In this document: in pieces, positions 1,419 to 14,740 of the stretch
How the letters are laid out: each line of letters starts with the position of its first letter
Position numbering within the stretch: position 1 is the stretch's first letter
IMG/VR virus record: IMGVR_UViG_2690315742_000009
Location: 1-16,435 of that record
Source: a virus
Taxonomy: Duplodnaviria; Heunggongvirae; Uroviricota; Caudoviricetes
Strand: one strand, 5' to 3'
Length of the DNA stretch: 16,435 nucleotides
Made by a program: the position numbers and the translations under genes
Notes under the pieces: generated by a model
What the model saw: the letters and a program-made list of their open reading frames with translations, nothing else
Told to the model about the DNA's origin: nothing
The model's database searches: none

Positions 1419-3860
1419 TTAAAAATCAGCCTGACTCGGGATCAGTTTTTGCCAGATAACTGAAACGTATTTTGCCTGGTAACGAGCGTCATCAAGTGCA
1501 TTATGGCGCTCACCTTCGAATGGAATAGCCGTTCTGGCATCGAAGTCTATGGCTTTCCCCAGCTCAACGATTGTGCGTACATCGCGATCGTTGTAGTAAC
1601 GCCACGGGCAGGGGATCCCCTGCCGTTCGTATGAACGGCGCAAAATCGTGTTGTCGAAGTTGGCTCCATTTCCCCAGACCTGAACAAAAAATTCACCGGA
1701 GTTTTCGTCGATAAATTCCCGCAATTGTAACAGTGCATCATCTAACGGGATTTCATCGGTCATAATGGCAGATTGCGCTTCGCGTGATTGCTTAAGCCAC
1801 CATTTAATGGTGTCCCGATCAATGACTCCGCCAGCAGTTTCCAGATCGATAGTCTTACTAAATTCCGGTCCCATATCTCCGGTTTGCGGATCGAAAAATA
1901 TTGCACCTATTGAGATGATCGGGGCATCAGGATTTTTTCCCATGGTTTCAAGGTCGATCATTAGATGGTCACACGTCCTGCTGGTGGATGTGATTTCGTG
2001 ATGACCGTTCACCTTAATTGAGTGATCTGCCGTCTCGCCAGTTTTATTATCGCTGGCGTGATGCTGATTGCCGCCAGGGTTCTCCTTGTGTGGATGTTCA
2101 GCGCCTTCCATTTCCTCCGGATCATTTTCCTGAACTTCAACCTGATTCTCTTCATCGAATGTTTCCTGGTATGTTGCGTCGCCCATCACCGCGCCACAAT
2201 CAGGGCAGTTGCCGCCACCGCTCTGACCGCAGGCGGTGCAGACTTTTTCCGGTTCCTGTTGCGCTACTGGTTCGGATTGTTTCGTTTCTGGCTCGTTTTG
2301 TAACGCATTTGGGCTGTTTTGTTCCGCTTTTTGGTCGTTCCGTTCCGATTCATGCTGGTTCTGGTTCACAGAATCGCGAGTCTGGATCCCCTTGACCCAT
2401 TTCGGATCATTAGGGTCGCTAATCCCCTCAACAAATTCACCACGCGATACAGCAAGTAACTTATCGGCGTCAGGCTGGCTGATATTGGCTGCCTGCATAA
2501 TTTTGTTTACTTCGTCAGCGGTGACTTTTACTTGGTTAGCGGAACTCACCTGCGACTGAGCATCCAGCGACTGCGCGTTCTGGCCATGTTCAGTTGTATC
2601 CGGTTCCATTGTTTCAGTTGTTGCCTGTTCACCTGCCATTGCGTCAGATGGTTGTGGTTTTTCTTCTTCTGTTTCACGCTCAGTAACCACCTCGCGGTTA
2701 ATTTCTTCCAGGATATCTTTTTCCGGCGTATGCCGGGCAGCTGTGAGAGTTTCCTTGCTGGGGTTCTCGTGATCAGTTTCCGTCAAATAGGCGTTGATAT
2801 ACCCCTGAAGGCGTCCCGGGTAGTGATAAAATTCAGGGTGTGCGCTTCGGATAAGTGCAAAAATAGCGGCGCGGGAATAGTCCAGAATACCCGGGGTTGC
2901 ACGAAGTGCTGCGGACCATTCTTTGAACGGACTTTCTTTGTTCAGGACTACTTCTTTTGCGCGACGATAAACGCTGCCCGGAATTTCATAAATATTAAAA
3001 TCCATCGGAAGTGTGGCTGCTGCAATCTCCACATCCAGTGTGTCGAGGGTGTGTACTAAATTCGGATTGCGATCGGTTTTGTTCCCACCGCCAGCATTAG
3101 CACCGGAAGCCGTGCGGGTGATGCGTGAAACACGATTTCCTTTCATCCACTCTTTTGTCAGCAGACCCCGATCAGTGTAGTCAGCGTCCAGGTATGCTTC
3201 GAAAAAAGCAGTTATTAGTCCCAGGTCTGAATTACCAGGATTAGGGAAAACTTTGTCAGTGTCACGAACCAGTTTGTGGAGGTCGCGAATCTCCAGCGAG
3301 TCGAGCAGACTGGTTTTATGCGAAATAGCCAGGGCAGTAACAGCCGGTAGTTCTTCAGCCCGTGCAATGTGTAATGCCTGGAGTTCGTCGCGTGAAACGT
3401 GCGTTACTGGTTTTTCGCTGCCGTGTTGAGCAAGCCAACGAATGGGCAGTTCCTGACCGGAGACAGGCAGAAGCATGCTCTCCTCAATCTCAGTCATGTC
3501 TTCGCCGTTGATGTTGGTATTGTCAGTGCTGGCTGGTTTGTCCTGAACAGAGGGGGAAGGGCCGATAAATGTCATTGTGATGCCATCTTTCCCGCCTTTT
3601 TCATAGCGGTTGCAGAATTCAGTATCAAACACGCCTTCTGGCGGAAGGTCGTCAACAACGGGCAAATTGACGCGGACGGGTTTTTTAAAGTCGTCTTCAT
3701 CATAATCGTTGTCATCCATTGCGGTAATGCAGCGGGAGATTGCAACAGATAATTTTTTTGCTGTAGTCCAGTAAAAACCACCTTTAATTCCCAGGCGTTT
3801 TCTTACTTTGTCATTTTTTGCTTCGCAATATAGTGCAAATTCTTCTTTATCAGTGCTCAT
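1419..3860 (-). CDS. Exonuclease: RecE-like N-terminal region fused to a DEDDh (DnaQ-like) 3'-5' exonuclease domain
   Basis: 813-aa ORF, ATG at 3858-3860 with GAGG upstream. Residues about 110-600 closely resemble the non-catalytic N-terminal part of Rac RecE as I recall it (e.g. [71 protein letters not shown]). The C-terminal 200 aa carry DEDDh motifs (DLETMG; [12 protein letters not shown]; [13 protein letters not shown]) in place of the RecE nuclease domain. A long acidic low-complexity linker lies between. Confidence 0.8.
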
Positions 3861-3953: not shown

Positions 3954-4145
3954 TTAAAATCCTGCCGGGATTTCGTTATTATCCTGGTGAATAACTTTAT
4001 CGACCGGATAACAGTTGCCTGGAATTTTCTGTTCGGTTGCTGCTGCCATACATTCCTGCATTGTTCTGTGAACACTGACTGCAATATCAACTGGCTCTCC
4101 GGAAACAAGAAAAACCGTCAGAATAAGTGCAAATACTGGATTCAT
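3954..4145 (-). CDS. ydfD: YdfD-like small lysis protein (63 aa, N-terminal hydrophobic segment)
   Basis: ATG at 4143-4145 overlaps the dicB stop (ATGA). Protein MNPVFALILTVFLVSGEPVDIAVSVHRTMQECMAAATEQKIPGNCYPVDKVIHQDNNEIPAGF matches my memory of Qin YdfD in length and sequence. TAA at 3954-3956. Confidence 0.7.
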   Translation of the reverse strand: MNPVFALILTVFLVSGEPVDIAVSVHRTMQECMAAATEQKIPGNCYPVDKVIHQDNNEIPAGF

Positions 4146-4330
4146 TGTGCACATCCTTTTGGCATCAGACGTAAACGGGCCAGCATTGAAACAATGCATA
4201 CTTTATTTAATAACTCCCGTTCGTGTTTTCTTTTGTTAATGGCATCTTCAGTAAATACAGGATTACTGATAGTGACACCAATTTCAAAACAACCTTCAGA
4301 CGTATTAACGTTTGGTAATAACGTTTTCAT
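4142..4330 (-). CDS. dicB: Cell division inhibitor DicB (62 aa)
   Basis: ATG at 4328-4330 with GAGGG about 7 nt upstream; the track's GTG at 4435 is an upstream extension. Protein MKTLLPNVNTSEGCFEIGVTISNPVFTEDAINKRKHERELLNKVCIVSMLARLRLMPKGCAQ matches recalled DicB of the Qin dicBF operon. Lies immediately downstream of DicF. Confidence 0.75.
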   Translation of the reverse strand: MKTLLPNVNTSEGCFEIGVTISNPVFTEDAINKRKHERELLNKVCIVSMLARLRLMPKGCAQ

Positions 4331-4503
4331 TATCGCGCCCTCAACAATGAGTTTTGTGATGCGGTGCCTGGTGCCTCCAGGTGACGTTAACCAGTTAACA
4401 ATTAACGCCGGATACAGAGAATCCACCCATAACACTGTTTTTGGTTTTAACTGTTCCGCGTGCGCTTAGCCGCATTCACCGCATCACAAAATTCACTTTA
4501 AAA

Positions 4504-4556
4504 AGGGCGGCAGAGCAGTCACGGAGTAAAACTGATACCGCCAAACGTCACCAGAA
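4504..4556 (-). ncRNA. dicF: DicF small RNA (53 nt)
   Basis: Minus strand reads TTTCTGGTGACGTTTGGCGGTATCAGTTTTACTCCGTGACTGCTCTGCCGCCC followed by TTTT, which matches the 53-nt E. coli DicF sequence as I recall it. Contains a GC-rich terminator stem (GGCGG...CCGCC) and sits between a ydfC-like ORF and dicB as in the Qin operon. Confidence 0.8.
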
Positions 4557-4898
4557 AATTGATAACAGAGGGCGTTGCAGTGGGGTTGTCACTTAAGCGT
4601 ATGGTCAACCTGACAACCCGGTGTCCTCAACGGGGGAAGGAATAACCCCGCCATACTTACCGCCGCGCCATTTCGCGGATTGCCACAACCGGAAGCGCAC
4701 GGTCGACGAAAATTTAACGACAGGCTATCTATGAACCAGCTACCTCGCCGTGCGCTTTCGCGTTATGGTCTGACTTTTCAGGGAAATATCCTTTCAGTAA
4801 ACTGTCAGTGCCGGATGCTCACCCGTGTCCGGCGCACGCACTCCACCTCACCCGTGGAGAACTCCTTAATTACCAACCTTAGCTTCGTTGGTTAGCTA

Positions 4899-5117
4899 TT
4901 AACGCTGGTATGTAATCATTCTGGCAATGCTTAATGCCGCTGCTTTTTCCAGCCTGGTGATATCCTGCTCCAGAGCGGACAGATTTTCAGCCTGCTTAGC
5001 CCTGGCTTCATTGGCCCATTTCAGATCCTGCGCTGCATTAATTTTCTGGCGCATCCACTCATAAAGTTCATCATCGGTATAGTCTGGCGCGATGATGACG
5101 GGTTCTCGTTTCTGCAT
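4899..5117 (-). CDS. Small protein in ydfC position of the dicBF operon (72 aa)
   Basis: ATG at 5115-5117 preceded by a strong SD (AAGGAG, 7-nt spacer). Same length and operon position as Qin YdfC; sequence identity not verified. Confidence 0.6.
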   Translation of the reverse strand: MQKREPVIIAPDYTDDELYEWMRQKINAAQDLKWANEARAKQAENLSALEQDITRLEKAAALSIARMITYQR

Positions 5118-5188
5118 GTCGGCTCCTTGTGGTTAGCGTTGCCTGCTTTTAACCACGTCAGGCGAGGTGGTATCCTCTGAGGGGTCTG

Positions 5189-5545
5189 TTACTCGAGAGG
5201 AAATTGGTTATGAATACAATCAAGTTTTCTTGCCCAGAATGTGGTGGCGAAGTCTTTGACACATCCTTTAAGCCGCAGGGCTCTGACAGTTTCGCGGGAG
5301 CCATCTGCAAAAATTGTGGTCACCTTGTAACTGAAGATGAGTCCTCGCAGTTCGATGACGAAATCGTTGACAATATCTTCGGTGCACTCACCAGAGACTT
5401 TCTGAAATAAAGACGCATACCGCTTAGTTACCGCTCTGATAACTCTTACCTGTCCGGCAATGGCGCTGATGTCAATATAAAGCGCCATTGCTGCTTCTTT
5501 GCCGATCCCGTGATGCCTTCCATTCTGATGTTTGACTTCGCCCAC
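5189..5545 (-). CDS. Hypothetical protein (118 aa from GTG, or 99 aa from ATG at 5488); competing call with the plus-strand ORF 5210..5410
   Basis: Co-directional with the early-left operon. GTG at 5543-5545 preceded by AGAGGA (9 nt). Codon first-position G is about 44 percent in the non-overlapping part 5411-5545. Lies where ydfA/ydfB-type genes would be expected by synteny. It shares exact codon triplets in antisense with the plus-strand zinc-ribbon ORF, so one of the two is probably an artifact. Confidence 0.35.
   Translation of the reverse strand: MGEVKHQNGRHHGIGKEAAMALYIDISAIAGQVRVIRAVTKRYASLFQKVSGECTEDIVNDFVIELRGLIFSYKVTTIFADGSRETVRALRLKGCVKDFATTFWARKLDCIHNQFPLE
5210..5410 (+). CDS. 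Small acidic zinc-ribbon protein (66 aa); competing call with the minus-strand ORF 5189..5545
   Basis: ATG at 5210 with GAGAGG about 10 nt upstream. Two CxxCG knuckles 20 residues apart (CPECGG ... CKNCGH) form a canonical zinc-ribbon signature; acidic C-terminus. Opposite in orientation to the surrounding operon. Confidence 0.4.
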   Translation: MNTIKFSCPECGGEVFDTSFKPQGSDSFAGAICKNCGHLVTEDESSQFDDEIVDNIFGALTRDFLK

Positions 5546-5727
5546 TGAGAAATCCTCTGTTTCCCCTTAACGCCGGGGTAGCGGAACAAAAACCTGCTGC
5601 ATAGTTAAAGTTGAACCCTGCCGTCATGTTCTTACGCCTCGGGCTGGCTACTTAACCCCTGACCACTGCCTGGTAACTCGAAGTATTGCCCTGCATTCTG
5701 TGGGGCGGGGTGGGTTGGTATGTTGTT

Positions 5728-5756
5728 AAGGTAACAAGAGTTACCTTTAGAGTCAA
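5728..5756 (-). promoter_or_regulatory. pL-like early leftward promoter with overlapping repressor operator
   Basis: Minus strand reads TTGACT, 17-nt spacer, TACCTT. An 18-bp perfect palindrome AGGTAACAAGAGTTACCT (plus 5729-5746) overlaps the spacer and -10. Sits just downstream of the repressor gene terminator, facing the dicBF-exo-xis-int operon. Confidence 0.5.
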
Positions 5757-5786
5757 TACAATGTTGCAAAAGGTACATTTGAGGGC

Positions 5787-5811
5787 ATAAAAAACCCGCA
5801 ATGAATGCGGG
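5787..5811 (-). terminator. Rho-independent terminator after the repressor gene
   Basis: Minus strand CCCGCA-TTCAT-TGCGGG followed by TTTTTTAT; 6-bp GC-rich stem immediately after the repressor stop codon (5819-5821). Confidence 0.7.
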
Positions 5812-5818
5812 TTCTGAC

Positions 5819-6493
5819 TCAGTCTAAGTATTGATGTATTTGTGAAACTTTACCTTTAATGGTGTAACCACCATTCAGTTCGATGGGTTTGTAAAGCGGA
5901 TTCAGTGACAACAGATAGATGTTTGGTCCGTCAATCGCAACTTTTTTTAGTGTTACGTTTGGCGTTCCTTCCAATTGGATTAAGATTATTTTTCCCACCA
6001 GTTCTCTAATGTTACTTGAGCATGGTGTGATCAGCACGGTAGATCCGTCGGGGATGGTTGGGAGGCCGTTAGAGTTTGTCATCGCATCTCCCTCAACATG
6101 CAATAAAAAAGAGTTTTCAGCGGTTTTTGTCATGACATCAACCCAATTCTTAATACCAGGAATCTCGGTTACTGGACAACTCATATCCCAATAACCAGCC
6201 TGTTCCCACGTTAAAACGGGCAACCGGGCGATGTTGTCACTAATGTAAGGGTACTGATTCAGACGCAGATCATCGGTTTTATCGTGACAGTCCTTTCCAT
6301 AAAGAATCCATTCAGGAGATTTGGAAAGCAATTTTGACAGTAGATGCAAATTCTCACCGTCAGGTTTTGAAGAGCCATTTTCCCATTTTGTTACGGATAC
6401 ACGAGATATGCCGATTGCTTTCGCAACCTGCTGTTGGGTTAATCCAACGTCTTTTCGACGATTCCGAATACGTTCGCTGATAGTGTTTTTCAT
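5819..6493 (-). CDS. cI-like prophage repressor (N-terminal XRE-type HTH plus C-terminal S24/LexA-like peptidase domain)
   Basis: HTH signature LTQQQVAKAIGISRVSVTKWENG near the N-terminus and a LexA/cI-like C-terminal domain. Preferred start is ATG at 6491-6493 (224 aa, no SD, operator abutting, suggesting a leaderless transcript as for lambda cI). Alternative ATG at 6536; the track's TTG at 6592 would overlap the cro-like start. Confidence 0.85.
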   Translation of the reverse strand: MKNTISERIRNRRKDVGLTQQQVAKAIGISRVSVTKWENGSSKPDGENLHLLSKLLSKSPEWILYGKDCHDKTDDLRLNQYPYISDNIARLPVLTWEQAGYWDMSCPVTEIPGIKNWVDVMTKTAENSFLLHVEGDAMTNSNGLPTIPDGSTVLITPCSSNIRELVGKIILIQLEGTPNVTLKKVAIDGPNIYLLSLNPLYKPIELNGGYTIKGKVSQIHQYLD

Positions 6494-6509
6494 GTAACCA
6501 ATGTTACTA
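6492..6509. promoter_or_regulatory. Operator-like palindrome (ATGTAAC-CAAT-GTTACTA) at the repressor start; PRM-like region
   Basis: Third copy of GTAAC-N4-GTTAC, directly abutting the repressor ATG. A TAACAT -10-like hexamer lies 7 nt upstream of the ATG on the minus strand. Confidence 0.45.
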
Positions 6510-6528
6510 CCAAGTGATGTTGCTATGG

Positions 6529-6558
6529 TTGACATTGCTATGTAACTATTGTTACCCT
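6529..6558 (+). promoter_or_regulatory. pR-like early rightward promoter with overlapping operator
   Basis: TTGACA (6529-6534), 18-nt spacer, TACCCT (6553-6558). Palindrome GTAACTATTGTTAC (6542-6555) overlaps the spacer and -10, mirroring the pL-like architecture. SD AGGAG and the cro-like ATG follow at 6585. Confidence 0.5.
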
Positions 6559-6584
6559 CCCGCTCGAAATAACAGGAGAGTTTT

Positions 6585-6797
6585 ATGTTCAAAGATGATG
6601 TTCTGCGCTATTTCAAAAAAAAGCGACTAGTAGCTGAGGCTCTTGGAATTTCACATGTGGCTGTTGTGCGGTGGAAAGCAGTTATTCCCAAACTTCGCGC
6701 AATGGAACTGGATGAAATTACTAACGGTGAATTGAAATACAACCCAGAACTTTACAAGAAGCAGGATAGCACCTCGAACGAAGGAAAGAATGATTAA
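6585..6797 (+). CDS. Cro/DicC-like small HTH regulator (70 aa)
   Basis: Divergent from the repressor; AGGAG 7 nt upstream of ATG. Sequence pattern (LRYF...LVAEALGISHVAVVRWKA...RAMELDEITNGELKYNPELY) resembles DicC/YdaS-type Cro-like proteins from memory. Stop overlaps the next gene's start by 1 nt. Confidence 0.75.
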   Translation: MFKDDVLRYFKKKRLVAEALGISHVAVVRWKAVIPKLRAMELDEITNGELKYNPELYKKQDSTSNEGKND

Positions 6798-7222
6798 TGA
6801 AAATCAAGCATGAACACATCCGCATGGCGATGAATGCCTGGGCGCATCCGGACGGCGAAAAAGTACCGGCTGCGAAAATTACCAAAGCGTATTTCGAGCT
6901 GGGAATGACGTTCCCGGAACTGTATGACGACAGCCATCCGGAAGCCCTGGCTCGCAATACTCAGAAAATATTCCGCTGGGTGGAGAAAGACACCCCTGAT
7001 GCTGTTGAAAAAATTCAGGCGTTGTTACCAGCGATCGAAAAAGCAATGCCACCTCTGCTGGTGGCCCGAATGCGCAGCCACAGTTCAGCCTATTTTCGGG
7101 AGCTGGTGGAGATGCGGGAACGACTGGTGAGAGACGCTGATGATTTTGTCGCAGTGGCGATCGCTGGTTTCAATCAGATGAATCGTGGTGGTCCGGCGGG
7201 AAATGCCGTGGTGGTGCATTGA
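6797..7222 (+). CDS. cII-position regulator (YdaT-like, 141 aa)
   Basis: Translationally coupled to the cro-like gene (TAATG overlap). Sits between cro-like and replication genes, i.e. the cII position. N-terminus MKIKHEHI resembles Rac YdaT as I recall it; unverified. Confidence 0.55.
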   Translation: MKIKHEHIRMAMNAWAHPDGEKVPAAKITKAYFELGMTFPELYDDSHPEALARNTQKIFRWVEKDTPDAVEKIQALLPAIEKAMPPLLVARMRSHSSAYFRELVEMRERLVRDADDFVAVAIAGFNQMNRGGPAGNAVVVH

Positions 7223-8982: not shown

Positions 8983-9726
8983 ATGGAGACTGTTTTTGAC
9001 GCACTGAAAGCGATGGGAAAAGCCACGTCGGTAGAGCTGGCTGCGCGACTTGATATCAGTCGTGAAGAAGTACTGAACGAGCTGTGGGAACTGAAAAAGG
9101 CTGGTTTTGTTGATAAAAGCGCGTACACCTGGCGTGTGGCTGATAACAACGTTCAGCAGGAACAGCCAGCGCCAGAAGAACAGCCGGAAGAAACCACCAC
9201 GGCGACAGTAGCGAAAATCTCAGAGTGCGATTTAACCGCGACGATTGAACAACGCGGACCACAAACGGCGGATGAACTGGCTACGCTGTTCGGTACAACA
9301 TCCCGCAAAGTGGCTTCAACGCTGGCAATGGCAATCAGCAAAGGTCGTCTGATTCGTGTTAATCAGAACGGTAAATTTCGTTACTGCATGCCGGGCGAGA
9401 ATTTACCAGCAGAGCCGAAAGCGGCATCGGTAGCGGAAACTGATGGTAAAGCCTTTCCTCAGCCTGCATGTGTTGCGTTACCAGTACAGGAAGCTGCAAC
9501 ACAGGAAGATATTAAAACAGAAACTGTGGCGGACATTGTGCAGCCGCTTGAGAAGCGAGTGGATAATCTGGTTCTGCCATCGCTGCGACAGGCAAACCGC
9601 GAACTGCGTCGGGCGAAAAGTGATATCAGGAAATGGGAGCGAGTCTGTGCCGCGCTGCGGGAGCTGAATAAATATCGCGATATTGTCGCCCAGCTTTGCC
9701 AGGAGGCAACCAGTGAGAAAAATTAA
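8983..9726 (+). CDS. Hypothetical protein with two winged-helix-like segments (DUF1627-like, from memory)
   Basis: GGGAGG 7 nt upstream of ATG. Acidic, Q/E/P-rich linker between two HTH-like stretches ([28 protein letters not shown]; [32 protein letters not shown]). Confidence 0.5.
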
Positions 9727-11356: not shown

Positions 11357-11475
11357 TGCAGCGGGTGCTTGAGGCTATCTGTCTCAGGCATGAACACCAA
11401 AAGGCAGATAGAGAAAAGCCCCAGTTAACATTACGCGTCCTGCAAGACGCTTAACATTAATCTGAGGCCATATCT

Positions 11476-11535
11476 ATGCGACACATAGAGATTAGCCTCT
11501 TACGGACCGAAAGGTCAAGGAGAAGCAGGCTATGA
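11476..11535 (+). CDS. Short upstream reading frame coupled to hok (mok-like, 19 codons)
   Basis: ATG at 11476; its TGA overlaps the hok ATG (ATGA). Analogous to mok-dependent translational coupling in hok/sok loci, but much shorter than classical mok. Confidence 0.3.
   Translation: MRHIEISLLRTERSRRSRL
11489..11518 (-). promoter_or_regulatory. Candidate promoter for a Sok-like antisense RNA
   Basis: Minus strand TTGACC (plus 11513-11518), 18-nt spacer, TAATCT (plus 11489-11494). Predicted antisense start near 11482, reading across the start of the upstream coupled frame. Confidence 0.4.
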
Positions 11536-14430: not shown

Positions 14431-14506
14431 GGCCCTTTAGCTCAGTGGTGAGAGCGAGCGACTCATAATCGCCAGGTCGCTGGTTCAAATCCAGCAAGGG
14501 CCACCA
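14431..14506 (+). tRNA. tRNA with CAU anticodon (Ile2-lysidine type or elongator Met)
   Basis: Hand-folded cloverleaf: acceptor GGCCCTT/AAGGGCC, D-stem GCTC/GAGC, anticodon loop CTCATAA, T-loop TTCAAAT, encoded CCA. Close to E. coli ileX as recalled. Confidence 0.8.
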
Positions 14507-14507
14507 G

Positions 14508-14584
14508 CCGCCACTAGCTCATCAGGAAAGAGCGTCAACCCTTTAAGTTGAGTGTGCGAGGTTCGAGTCCCCGGTGGCGGTCCA
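14508..14584 (+). tRNA. tRNA-like gene with unusual anticodon loop CCTTTAA (nominal anticodon UUU, Lys-type; C at position 33)
   Basis: Cloverleaf folds: acceptor CCGCCAC/GTGGCGG, D-stem GCTC/GAGC, perfect anticodon stem TCAAC/GTTGA, T-loop TTCGAGT, encoded CCA. T-stem has one A-C mismatch and position 33 is C, not the near-universal U. Confidence 0.55.
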
Positions 14585-14586
14585 GT

Positions 14587-14662
<76 letters not shown>

Positions 14663-14665
14663 TAT

Positions 14666-14740
<75 letters not shown>

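Follow-up and report, generated by a model that had tools for sequence, protein, structure and literature searches.

The DNA analyzed here, a window of 16,435 bases (the whole stretch under study), comes from an E. coli lambdoid prophage in which a 1.08-kb immunity cassette (5713..6791), consisting of pL/OL, a terminator, the repressor gene, OR and cro, forms a mosaic unit. The borders of this unit are apparent from the comparison with phage vB_EcoS-640R1, which is homologous to the window at 4108-5712 (98.6%) and 6792-7222 (95.4%), with nothing in between, and carries a different immunity region of the DicA/DicC type; all operators and promoters fall inside the swapped segment. A megablast search against 50,697 phage records matched the flanks only, the cassette DNA being absent, so that its relatives were reached through protein searches; in complete E. 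coli genomes, the cassette is found at a coverage of at least 80% in 702 of 5,426. The repressor gene (5819..6493, minus strand) encodes a 224-aa protein of the cI/P22-c2 kind with HTH_3 (Pfam, 2e-16) and Peptidase_S24 (9.6e-17) domains, the closest solved relatives of which are lambda cI and the N-terminal domain of P22 c2. The cro gene (6585..6797, plus strand; 70 aa) belongs to the P22_Cro family (PF14549, 2.8e-16, above the gathering score) and has a Shine-Dalgarno sequence, AGGAG, at 6574-6578. The leftward operon served by pL reads ydfA-ydfB-ydfC-dicF-dicB-exo-xis-int.

To the right of cro lies ydaT, the product of which matches the solved YdaT of CP-933P (PDB 8BT1, E = 2.9e-82). A probable site for this CII-equivalent protein, ATGATT-N6-AATCAA (6790..6807), is located at the cro stop and ydaT start, just outside the cassette, and differs by one mismatch from TTGATT-N6-AATCAA, the YdaT site that in CP-933P is found at the end of ydaS (PMC9986795). 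The window thus combines a YdaT protein with a site at the end of cro, in the location described for CP-933P (PMC9986795), and this site would probably mark a pRE-type establishment promoter region.

The first-pass annotation of this DNA reported three copies of the palindrome GTAAC-N4-GTTAC, and the exact pattern (GTAACNNNNGTTAC) indeed has three matches, at 5731-5744, 6494-6507 and 6542-6555, and no more in the full window, against 0.01 expected from shuffled versions of it, none of 200 shuffles having yielded three. A weight matrix constructed from the relatives' OR1 and OR3 sequences, with the window left out, ranks these three palindromes first to third at 22.2, 21.2 and 15.9 bits, the next match scoring 8.3. 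When up to two mismatches are allowed, the window contains 12 matches (4.4 expected), among which the three exact sites are the only intergenic ones; the one-mismatch matches at 3394 and 9371 are intragenic and were regarded as chance occurrences.

The leftmost palindrome, OL1 (5731..5744; GTAAC-AAGA-GTTAC, GTAACAAGAGTTAC; 15.9 bits), lies in the spacer of the predicted pL promoter, between the -35 hexamer TTGACT (5751..5756) and the -10 hexamer TACCTT (5728..5733; both on the minus strand, 17 nt apart), and overlaps the latter. It had been described as a perfect 18-bp palindrome; the extended site at 5729-5746 in fact consists of 7-bp inverted arms, AGGTAAC/GTTACCT, around the non-palindromic spacer AAGA. 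Upstream of the pL -35 hexamer is a weak second site, OL2 (5763..5776; on the repressor strand, GTACC-TTTT-GCAAC), which deviates from the consensus at 3 positions and is the fifth-best matrix match in the window (6.0 bits). The relatives have OL1 as GTAAC-N4-G(G/T)TAC, with a TTGAC -35 located 6 nt upstream, and OL2 as GTAAC-N4-G(G/T)(A/T)AC in the interval from the terminator to the -35 hexamer; the conserved order 3' of the repressor gene is terminator, OL2, TTGAC, 6 nt, OL1 and TAC(A/C)TT, the last at the position of the window's pL -10. The search for this pattern required TTGAC, and the unbiased evidence for the -35 hexamer, present at the same offset in the relatives, comes from a separate view of the loci. 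The centers of OL2 and OL1 are 32 bp apart in the window and 32-35 bp apart among the relatives, a variation that weakens a model of strict helical-phase cooperativity.

The repressor transcript ends at an intrinsic terminator (5789..5813, minus strand; stem AACCCGCA/UGCGGGUU followed by a U-run) that was missed by a consensus scan and confirmed by folding: the hairpin has a predicted energy of -16.7 kcal/mol (z = -3.95; none of 200 shuffles equally stable), and the relatives have an equivalent hairpin and T-run. On the other side of pL, the leader (5625-5722, minus strand) gave no Rfam match better than E = 0.85 and no unusual structure (fold z-score -0.08), and the idea that it is a structured or antiterminator RNA was dropped on these results.

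The other two exact palindromes lie between the divergent genes. OR1 (6542..6555; GTAAC-TATT-GTTAC, GTAACTATTGTTAC; the top matrix score, 22.2 bits) sits in the spacer of the predicted pR promoter (-35 TTGACA, 6529..6534; -10 TACCCT, 6553..6558; plus strand, 18-nt spacer) and overlaps its -10 hexamer. All relatives keep GTAAC-N4-G(G/T)TAC here, and their pR consists of TTGCTA, 1 nt downstream of the window position, and TACCTT, with a 17-nt spacer. The earlier proposal that an operator sits between the -35 and -10 hexamers of both the leftward and the rightward promoter is in agreement with this layout, in which the operator occupies the spacer and shares 3 nt with the -10 hexamer. OR3 (6494..6507; GTAAC-ATTG-GTTAC on the repressor strand, GTAACCAATGTTAC) abuts the repressor ATG (6493-6491, minus strand) and contains the candidate -10 hexamer of pRM, TAACAT (6501..6506, minus strand), 7 nt before the A of the start codon; at the same fixed spacing, this hexamer is kept as TAAC(A/C)T in the aligned GTAAC-type relatives and as TAGGAT in mEp390. 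No recognizable -35 hexamer was found for the candidate pRM. All three -10 hexamers match TATAAT at 3 of 6 positions, those of pL and pR having the form TAnnnT; this is below the threshold of the consensus sigma-70 scan, which for that reason reported no promoter in 5400-6900, and the promoter assignments therefore rest on position and conservation.

A third site in this region, OR2 (6519..6532; read on the repressor strand, TCAAC-CATA-GCAAC), shares bases with the pR -35 hexamer; it was assigned by position, being unrecognizable by sequence alone (-8.0 bits, rank 94 in the weight-matrix scan; each half-site matches the consensus at 3 of 5 positions). With OR2 and OL2, both of which are weak and had been overlooked previously, the number of sites probably comes to five.

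So should such a degenerate sequence be considered an operator at all? It occupies the same place in 25 loci, with 9 nt separating it from OR1 and 11 nt from OR3, and the complete layout, OR1(14)-9-OR2(14)-11-OR3(14)-ATG, is identical in these loci, one of them with a 3-nt offset, which come from Salmonella, Yersinia, Arsenophonus, Erwinia, Buttiauxella, Kluyvera, Edwardsiella and Klebsiella, among others. The resulting center-to-center spacings of 23 and 25 bp, shared by the window and all relatives, are compatible with pairwise cooperative binding. In a set of 26 loci from more than 10 genera, with repressors 43-89% identical and with phages ZF40, AH07 and Klebsiella phi6.3 included, the majority fraction is 0.98 in the half-site columns of OR1 and OR3 and 0.90 in those of OR2, compared to 0.49-0.62 in the gaps. 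Conceivably, OR could work with OR1 and OR3 only, 48 bp apart, with OR2 decayed and unbound, in which case there would be two independent repressions, and neither cooperativity nor activation would involve OR2. The poor score of OR2 in the window is what such an arrangement would predict, as is the better preservation of its right half in closer relatives (GTGAC, GTAAC, GGTAC), but it leaves unexplained why position and spacing are fixed in all relatives, with the half-site columns 90% conserved. Part of the degeneracy, moreover, is explained by the constraint that the pR -35 TTGACA imposes on the left half of OR2, and a weak middle operator that depends on cooperative filling is the usual case in lambda and P22. 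Decay of OR2 thus appears rather unlikely, albeit well within the range of serious alternatives, and we retain a three-site OR.

A different objection concerns the conservation of the OR3 site, which could reflect protein coding (the peptide N-I-G-Y) if the repressor started at the ATG at 6535 and comprised 238 aa, so that the start would neither abut an operator nor be leaderless. This is the model chosen by RefSeq, the PGAP annotation placing the gene at 5819-6535, and many database homologs are called with an N-terminal extension that aligns at 'NIGYMK'; whether the ATG abuts the operator, as the first-pass annotation stated, hence depends on the start codon chosen. The codon evidence from the 26 loci points the other way. 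An ATG at codon -14 is present in just 7 of them, 12 have an in-frame TAG in its place, and in 14 an upstream stop is reached without any ATG in frame, whereas an ATG matching 6493 is found in 24 (L002 has its ATG two codons upstream and L019 one codon downstream), the corresponding Met being nearly invariant in the protein alignment. Within the 14-mer, the third positions of the AAC, GGT and TAC codons never vary, and the non-synonymous change GGT->AGT is common, which is opposite to what coding constraint would produce. The motif is found again in the non-coding OL and OR1, and the protein that starts at 6493 aligns residue for residue with the N-terminal domain of P22 c2. We therefore rejected the RefSeq extension as a real part of the protein; a start at 6535 is highly improbable, and the ATG at 6493, abutting an operator, as had been proposed, is the favored start on sequence grounds. 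The exact GTAAC-N4-GTTAC is present at OR3 in all 20 loci fetched from genome_contigs and abuts the ATG in 18 of these, with a 3-nt offset in L019. With a TAACAT hexamer 7 nt before the ATG, in a predicted promoter that lacks a -35 hexamer, and no AGGAG-type Shine-Dalgarno sequence, the position of pRM makes a leaderless repressor mRNA starting at 6493 plausible.

Which protein would bind these sites? The recognition helix of the repressor is S30-R-V-S-V-T-K-W-E38, and its R-V-S-V-T-K-W-E is invariant in 18 of 18 aligned homologs that are 44-89% identical overall. That of Cro, ISHVAVVRW, resembles the repressor's ISRVSVTKW, and in those relatives in which the cro start is correctly called, the helix reads SH(P/V)AV(C/V/S)RW and is accompanied by a GGAG-containing Shine-Dalgarno sequence. 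Phage mEp390, the repressor of which is 42% identical to that of the window, keeps the same 14-9-14-11-14-ATG geometry, and both its helix (NRVTVTGWE) and its half-sites (GTAGG/GTAAG...CCTAC/CTTAC) are changed. The helix being invariant where GTAAC is kept and both being changed in mEp390, specificity tracks the recognition helix. This co-variation runs counter to the notion that another regulator, such as YdaT, a host factor or Cro alone, rather than the cI-like repressor, binds the palindromes. The similarity of the Cro helix lends this notion some appeal because Cro must bind somewhere in OR; still, the sites move together with both genes, repressor and cro, as part of a swapped cassette in hosts of many genera, and the YdaT site, TTGATT-N6-AATCAA (PMC9986795), is different and has its near-perfect copy elsewhere, at 6790-6807, so that we deem exclusive binding by another factor very unlikely. 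Although arms of just 5 bp might occur by accident in AT-rich stretches between genes, the possibility that the palindromes are fortuitous matches or hairpin/terminator structures without a regulatory role is negligible in view of the shuffling results, the conservation of position and sequence across genera next to freely varying flanking spacers, and the weakness of a 5-bp stem with a 4-nt loop as a terminator, the true terminator being a separate hairpin.

The sites are accordingly real and non-random, and they are conserved in position, spacing and half-site, in co-variation with the recognition helix. Their earlier identification as operators of the adjacent cI-like repressor is supported by the gene content, the footprint in the 26 loci and the co-variation in mEp390. 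The further claim that GTAAC defines the immunity specificity of this phage was overstated; the half-site is not a property of this phage in particular, since half-site and helix are common to repressors just 43-50% identical from many genera.

The scenario that accommodates these findings in the simplest fashion, and which we regard as very probable, is that a lysogeny switch of the P22 type, located on the 1.08-kb cassette of an E. coli lambdoid prophage, uses the palindromes as its operators. Dimers of the 224-aa repressor would recognize GTAAC half-sites via the helix SRVSVTKWE, each site comprising a 14-bp core and up to 18 bp with the flanks. OR1 in the pR promoter, where it takes up the spacer and -10, and a weak OR2 located 23 bp off at the pR -35 would jointly silence cro-ydaT-replication transcription, and OR1's counterpart on the left, OL1 in the pL spacer and -10, would shut down the leftward operon from ydfA to int together with OL2, a weak site upstream of the -35. 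OR3, 25 bp beyond OR2, would cover the -10 and the start point of the repressor's own promoter, which probably yields a leaderless mRNA beginning at AUG 6493; with OR3 in this place, the repressor would autoregulate negatively, and the P22_Cro-family protein, with its similar helix, would bind the same sites and turn the repressor off via OR3. With a transcription start at 6493, the center of OR2 falls near -32.5 and not at about -42, as that of lambda OR2 does, so lambda-style activation of pRM from OR2 is not simply transferable. Binding, the order of occupancy, cooperativity, any activation of pRM and the leaderless start are what we infer from this arrangement.

Among the known systems, P22 provides the closest parallel. 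Its c2 repressor is homologous to that of the window over the full length (36% identity, tblastn), the N-terminal domains aligning residue for residue when the latter is read from 6493, and the window Cro is in the same Pfam family, P22_Cro. P22 and phage 21, the operators of which are characterized, have three of them, like the window, between divergent repressor and cro genes, with centers 23 and 25 bp apart and OR3 adjacent to the repressor ATG, and the P22 operators likewise are palindromes with a 4-bp central spacer. The P22 repressor makes no contact with this spacer, and the same may be supposed for the window. In the annotation of phage 21, a second operator cluster lies past a terminator downstream of the repressor gene, as it does here. 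The differences are in the specifics: the half-site is of the (A/T)TTAAG type in P22 versus GTAAC in the window, with the helices SNVAISQ and SRVSVTK, respectively; the center of OR3 is 9 nt before the ATG in P22 and 7 nt in the window; and phage 21 is annotated with three OL sites, whereas the window has two recognizable ones that flank the -35 hexamer, 32 bp apart. In P22 and phage 21, furthermore, the downstream partner is a lambda-type CII/C1 rather than YdaT, pL drives an N/gene 24 antiterminator rather than ydfABC-dicF-dicB, and the window allele has Ala in place of the catalytic Ser. Activation from OR2 of P22 is reportedly treated by Poteete and Ptashne in work of 1980 and 1982.

The logic of the switch is also that of lambda, with divergent cI-like repressor and cro genes (the window S24 domain matches the lambda cI C-terminal domain at E = 2e-14), a tripartite OR that overlaps pR and pRM, an OL that overlaps pL, and a repressor gene without a Shine-Dalgarno sequence, the -10 hexamer of which is set for a start at the AUG; the lambda cI mRNA made from pRM is leaderless. 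The sequence and length of the lambda operators are unlike those of the window, and lambda Cro is of a different fold family than P22_Cro, which is all-alpha. OR3 and OR2 of the window are some 10-12 bp nearer to the repressor start than in lambda, and the OL-OR distance is about 0.8 kb, compared to about 2.4 kb. Neither an N gene nor nut sites of the lambda kind were found in the window.

The cryptic prophage CP-933P of E. coli O157:H7, with its PaaR2, YdaS and YdaT, resembles the window in a different respect, namely, the right-hand neighbor YdaT, the YdaT-type inverted repeat at the end of the cro-like gene, and the intergenic region of about 90-97 bp between the repressor and cro-like genes. 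The paaR2 repressor mRNA is leaderless by 5' RACE (PMC8630535), so that an E. coli prophage with a ydaT gene is already known to have a repressor gene of this leaderless kind. PaaR2, which is encoded in a toxin-antitoxin operon, and YdaS, the counterpart of Cro, are, however, of other families than those of the window. Four 18-bp repeats with the consensus GTTTAGTAA serve as operators in CP-933P (PMC8630535), and the window cassette can hence be viewed as another immunity module inserted into a shared YdaT backbone.

Close counterparts in operator sequence are Pectobacterium ZF40, Pantoea AH07 and Klebsiella ST101-KPC2phi6.3, all with GTAAC-N4-G(G/T)TAC sites and the order OR1-OR2-OR3-ATG and OL2/-35/OL1 of the window. 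The helix SRVSVTKWE is the same in AH07 and ST101-KPC2phi6.3, and reads SRVTITKWE in ZF40; these repressors are just 42-43% identical to that of the window. The searchable literature on ZF40 deals with the Aca2/anti-CRISPR system and yielded no operator study. More generally, the searchable literature, in which the older P22 work is thinly covered, contained nothing relevant on the half-site or the operator 14-mers, nor any binding or transcription-start data for the cassette or any GTAAC-type relative.

One feature sets the window repressor apart from the ZF40/AH07/phi6.3 type, in which the catalytic Ser is kept wherever it was checked in the wider homolog set. The window has Ala137 at this position (codon 6083-6085), VEGDAMT against VEGNSMT with Ser149 in lambda cI; the protein still has the Lys (LKK) and the QAG motif, and the Ser-Lys dyad is thus incomplete. 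With Ala in place of the catalytic Ser, the protein is not a standard SOS-cleavable cI and is probably in a non-cleavable state. Ala at 137 is shared by the homologs P0001, P0002, P0004 and P0005, of which P0001, with 499 member sequences, is the commonest E. coli database cluster of close homologs, and more distant homologs retain Ser, with the exception of one degenerate sequence, P0022. No LexA box with up to one mismatch occurs in the window beyond chance, so there is no evidence within it for a LexA-controlled antirepressor.

The switch, then, is an uncharacterized member of a textbook kind, with no new mechanism, and leaves the understanding of how such switches work unchanged. In practical terms, the analysis corrects a RefSeq model that extends the repressor gene over its own operators, and the operators, the start codon and the probable non-cleavable state help predict homo-immune prophages and select orthogonal repressor/operator pairs for use in synthetic circuits. 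The P22, mEp390 and GTAAC types, as three specificities on one scaffold, form a natural specificity series. A broader and distinctly tentative reading is that the GTAAC-type switches make up a single immunity group of Enterobacterales, and that in E. coli, where the window allele and the P0001 cluster have Ala137, the loss of the catalytic serine produced a locked repressor or an antirepressor-dependent mode of induction. If this is true, the helix, the half-site and the 23/25-bp geometry would have been frozen while the repressors diverged to about 43% identity, and cross-immunity would be expected between phages of different genera (ZF40, AH07, Klebsiella and E. coli prophages). Given that the cassette controls a leftward operon with the cell-division inhibitors DicF and DicB, an SOS-inducible switch would, with the loss of this serine, have turned into a device for the permanent silencing of dicF/dicB, a step in the domestication of the prophage.

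The 16,435-base window has three exact copies of GTAAC-N4-GTTAC, at 5731-5744 (predicted operator OL1), 6494-6507 (OR3) and 6542-6555 (OR1), with a chance expectation of 0.01 matches on average and no instance of three matches in 200 dinucleotide-preserving shuffles (0/200). The first-pass annotation gave the coordinates and sequences of these palindromes correctly, and our search of the whole window yielded no further exact copies; its description of 5729-5746 as an 18-bp perfect palindrome is wrong, however, because the 7-bp arms AGGTAAC and GTTACCT flank a non-palindromic AAGA. With two mismatches allowed, 12 matches are found against 4.4 expected, the additions being exclusively intragenic and appearing at about the chance rate. 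Copies with one mismatch lie at 9371-9384 (GTAAATTTCGTTAC, within a DUF1627 gene) and at 3394-3407 (GAAACGTGCGTTAC, within the exonuclease gene); their number is consistent with chance, and they may still represent weak secondary sites. A weight matrix derived from OR1 and OR3 of relatives only ranks the three sites first to third (22.2, 21.2 and 15.9 bits) and places OL2 (5763-5776) fifth, at 6.0 bits, so that the window probably contains five operators. The remaining one, OR2 (6519-6532), ranks 94th at -8.0 bits, is unrecognisable by sequence, and is putatively assigned through positional homology as the sole basis.

The adjacent repressor (5819-6493, minus strand) contains HTH_3 and Peptidase_S24 domains, and its nearest solved structures are full-length lambda cI and the N-terminal domain of P22 c2. 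A protein search detected homologues down to ~44% identity, with the recognition helix R-V-S-V-T-K-W-E invariant in 18 of 18. We compared 20 genomic loci from Yersinia, Arsenophonus, Chania, Buttiauxella, Mangrovibacter, Kluyvera, Edwardsiella, Erwinia, Rahnella, Phytobacter, Kosakonia, Pseudescherichia, Klebsiella and others, with closer relatives added, and all share one layout on the repressor strand, namely OR1, 9 nt, OR2, 11 nt, OR3 and the repressor ATG, except for one locus that is shifted by 3 nt. On this strand, OR1 of the relatives reads GTAAC-N4-G(G/T)TAC, OR3 reads GTAAC-ATT(G/A)-GTTAC, and OR2 consists of a weaker left half and a GTTAC-like right half. Among 26 non-redundant loci, with phages ZF40, AH07 and Klebsiella phi6.3 represented, the majority base reaches a fraction of 0.98 in the half-site columns of OR1 and OR3 and 0.90 in OR2, against 0.62 in the gaps and 0.49 in that of 11 nt. 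Beyond the repressor stop codon, the relatives follow the order seen in the window: a hairpin terminator (-16.7 kcal/mol, z = -3.95 in the window), OL2, TTGAC, 6 nt, OL1 and a -10 hexamer composed of the final three operator bases plus (A/C)TT; the OL2-OL1 spacing varies among relatives from 32 to 35 bp.

Two Salmonella relatives (L022 and L023) carry a 204-aa ORF without a Pfam match 3' of the repressor gene (3466-4080 in L022); in the window and in most relatives, OL instead follows the stop codon within about 130 nt, and the ORF may be a moron that takes the place of lambda rexAB. A pL leader segment (5629-5657, minus strand; GGTTAAGTAGCCAGCCCGAGGCGTAAGAA), directly 5' of the ydfA ATG, recurs downstream of OL1 in two distantly related loci (L024 and L002), and many other relatives have CATCAACAGCGAACAGGCAGGACGCC in common instead; the leader has no Rfam match, and the stability of its predicted fold is unremarkable (z = -0.08).

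Co-variation and CHARACTERISED relatives were examined by comparison with phage mEp390 and with P22 and phage 21. The mEp390 repressor is 42% identical to that of the window and has the helix NRVTVTGWE; its locus (about 480-600 and 1290-1350) retains the 14-9-14-11-14-ATG geometry along with an OL pair, and the half-sites at OR1-3 and OL are GTAGG/GTAAG...CCTAC/CTTAC. Given that helix and half-sites are both altered on a retained geometry, the two co-vary on a fixed scaffold. The sites exist and are non-random, and their position, spacing and half-sites are conserved and co-vary with the recognition helix. Of the computational evidence that the palindromes serve as operators of the window repressor, as originally proposed, this co-variation is the strongest, and together with the conserved layout in 26 loci it supports that assignment. 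P22 and phage 21, the operators of which have been characterised, encode repressors 36% identical to that of the window, and the fetched sequences have the arrangement OR1(18)-5-OR2(18)-7-OR3(18)-ATG, that is, the same 23- and 25-bp centre spacings, with OR3 abutting the c2 start. Phage mEp390 is a natural specificity variant of the same scaffold which, with P22, brings the number of specificities to three. The divergent cro gene (6585-6797, plus strand) belongs to the P22_Cro family; the Cro helix ISHVAVVRW resembles the repressor helix ISRVSVTKW, and its core motif SH(P/V)AV(C/V/S)RW is kept in relatives.

The RefSeq/PGAP annotation places the repressor start at the ATG at 6535 (WP_000103683.1, 238 aa), adding the stretch 6494-6535 on the minus strand, so that the annotated gene covers OR3 and OR2 and enters the pR -35 hexamer (6529-6534). 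Many database homologues carry similar N-terminal extensions, in which 'NIGYMK' aligns. Four observations lead us to reject the extension as a real protein segment. First, the ATG at codon -14 is present in only 7 of the 26 loci, 12 have an in-frame TAG there, and 14 have no upstream ATG before a stop. Second, the protein alignment shows almost no variation at the Met at 6493, with a matching ATG in 24 of the 26 loci and a nearby ATG in the other two. Third, when OR3 is read as codons, AAC, GGT and TAC show no change at synonymous positions and the non-synonymous change GGT to AGT is frequent. Fourth, a protein that begins at 6493 lines up at its N-terminus, residue for residue, with the N-terminal domain of P22 c2. 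These observations indicate operator DNA read as protein, which also accounts for the 'NIGY' conserved in many database entries, and the N-terminal extension looks like a systematic error of annotation.

With the start at 6493, the leaderless transcript suggested earlier is plausible, as a prediction. The mRNA of lambda cI is leaderless. Within OR3, TAACAT (6506 to 6501) is represented by TAAC(A/C)T in aligned GTAAC-type relatives, fixed 7 nt 5' of the A of the ATG, and by TAGGAT at the same place in mEp390; this is the arrangement predicted for a leaderless repressor mRNA. The cro genes of relatives, where the start is correctly called, have a GGAG-containing Shine-Dalgarno sequence and the repressor genes have none. 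The candidate pRM lacks a recognisable -35 hexamer, and a consensus promoter scan of 5400-6900 returned no promoter at all. The paaR2 mRNA of the CP-933P prophage has been shown experimentally to be leaderless (PMC8630535).

In the proposed switch, repressor bound at OR1, over the spacer and -10 hexamer of pR, and at OR2, over its -35 hexamer, would block rightward expression of cro, ydaT and the replication genes, and binding at OL1 and OL2 would block pL and keep ydfABC-dicF-dicB-exo-xis-int silent. OR3 covers the candidate pRM -10 hexamer and predicted start point and could mediate both negative autoregulation of the repressor and its shut-off by Cro. Pairwise cooperativity is suggested by the 23/25-bp spacing and by the C-terminal domain, which resembles that of lambda cI. 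If the transcript starts at 6493, OR2 is centred near -32.5, a position similar to that in P22, whereas lambda OR2 is centred at about -42; lambda therefore offers no guide to whether, or in what way, OR2 activates pRM. During establishment, the repressor is probably supplied from a pRE-like leftward promoter activated by YdaT, the product of the gene next after cro (domain search), which matches the solved YdaT of CP-933P (PDB 8BT1) with E = 3e-82. An inverted repeat at the cro stop/ydaT start (6790-6807; ATGATTaatgaaAATCAA), probably the region of this pRE-type promoter, differs by one mismatch from TTGATT-N6-AATCAA, the site footprinted at the same location for CP-933P YdaT (PMC9986795).

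The region 5650-6800 is 100% identical to the chromosome of E. coli TUM9757, where it lies in a lambdoid prophage adjoining potC with the order int, xis, exonuclease, dicB, ydfC, ydfB, ydfA, 'LexA family protein', 'Cro/CI family regulator' and YdaT, followed by O- and P-like replication genes, hokD, RusA, Q, tRNAs and lysis genes. The OL-controlled pL operon, comprising ydfC/ydfB/ydfA (4899-5627), DicF (4505-4556, minus strand; Rfam, 76.7 bits) and dicB (about 4260-4448), is the Qin-type ydfA-ydfB-ydfC-dicF-dicB cell-division-inhibitor operon, joined here to a non-DicA immunity cassette. The Q-like antiterminator is followed by ordinary lambdoid prophage cargo, namely a sok antisense RNA with hokD (11363-11534) and four clustered tRNA genes (14431-14737); Rfam detected the sok RNA and the tRNAs. 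The immunity region is present at >=80% coverage in 702 of 5,426 complete E. coli genomes and, at the DNA level, is absent from 50,697 phage records, in which matches are limited to its flanks. Homology to phage vB_EcoS-640R1, in which the immunity region is of the DicA/DicC type, breaks off at 5712 and resumes at 6792; 5713-6791 is therefore an exchangeable immunity cassette enclosing all the OR and OL sites.

The switch would work in the same way as those of P22 and lambda and shares every sequence-testable property of that kind except the catalytic dyad. The window repressor departs from the S24 self-cleaving family in that its Ser-Lys dyad is incomplete: where lambda cI has its nucleophile Ser149 (VEGNSMT), this protein has Ala137 (VEGDAMT; codon GCG, 6083-6085), although it retains the Lys and the Gln-Ala-Gly cleavage motif. 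The E. coli homologue cluster P0001 (499 member sequences) likewise has Ala, as do P0002, P0004 and the Salmonella homologue P0005; Ser is kept in P0003, P0006 and distant relatives, the degenerate Arsenophonus sequence P0022 being the exception. By analogy with lambda cI S149A, a non-cleaving repressor, the Ala137 protein should not cleave itself, and the prophage would therefore either fail to respond to SOS induction or depend on an antirepressor. A search of the window gave no LexA box.

We found no mention of GTAAC-type operators in the literature searched, and this specificity is a new, apparently uncharacterised one within the known P22/lambda kind. The proposal that the GTAAC half-site defines the immunity specificity of this phage stands insofar as the half-site tracks the recognition helix, as in mEp390, but the half-site is not restricted to this phage and is common to repressors 43-50% identical in many genera, including those of the isolated phages ZF40, AH07 and Klebsiella phi6.3. 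Because the half-site is shared so widely, cross-immunity is predicted among phages with these GTAAC-type repressors.
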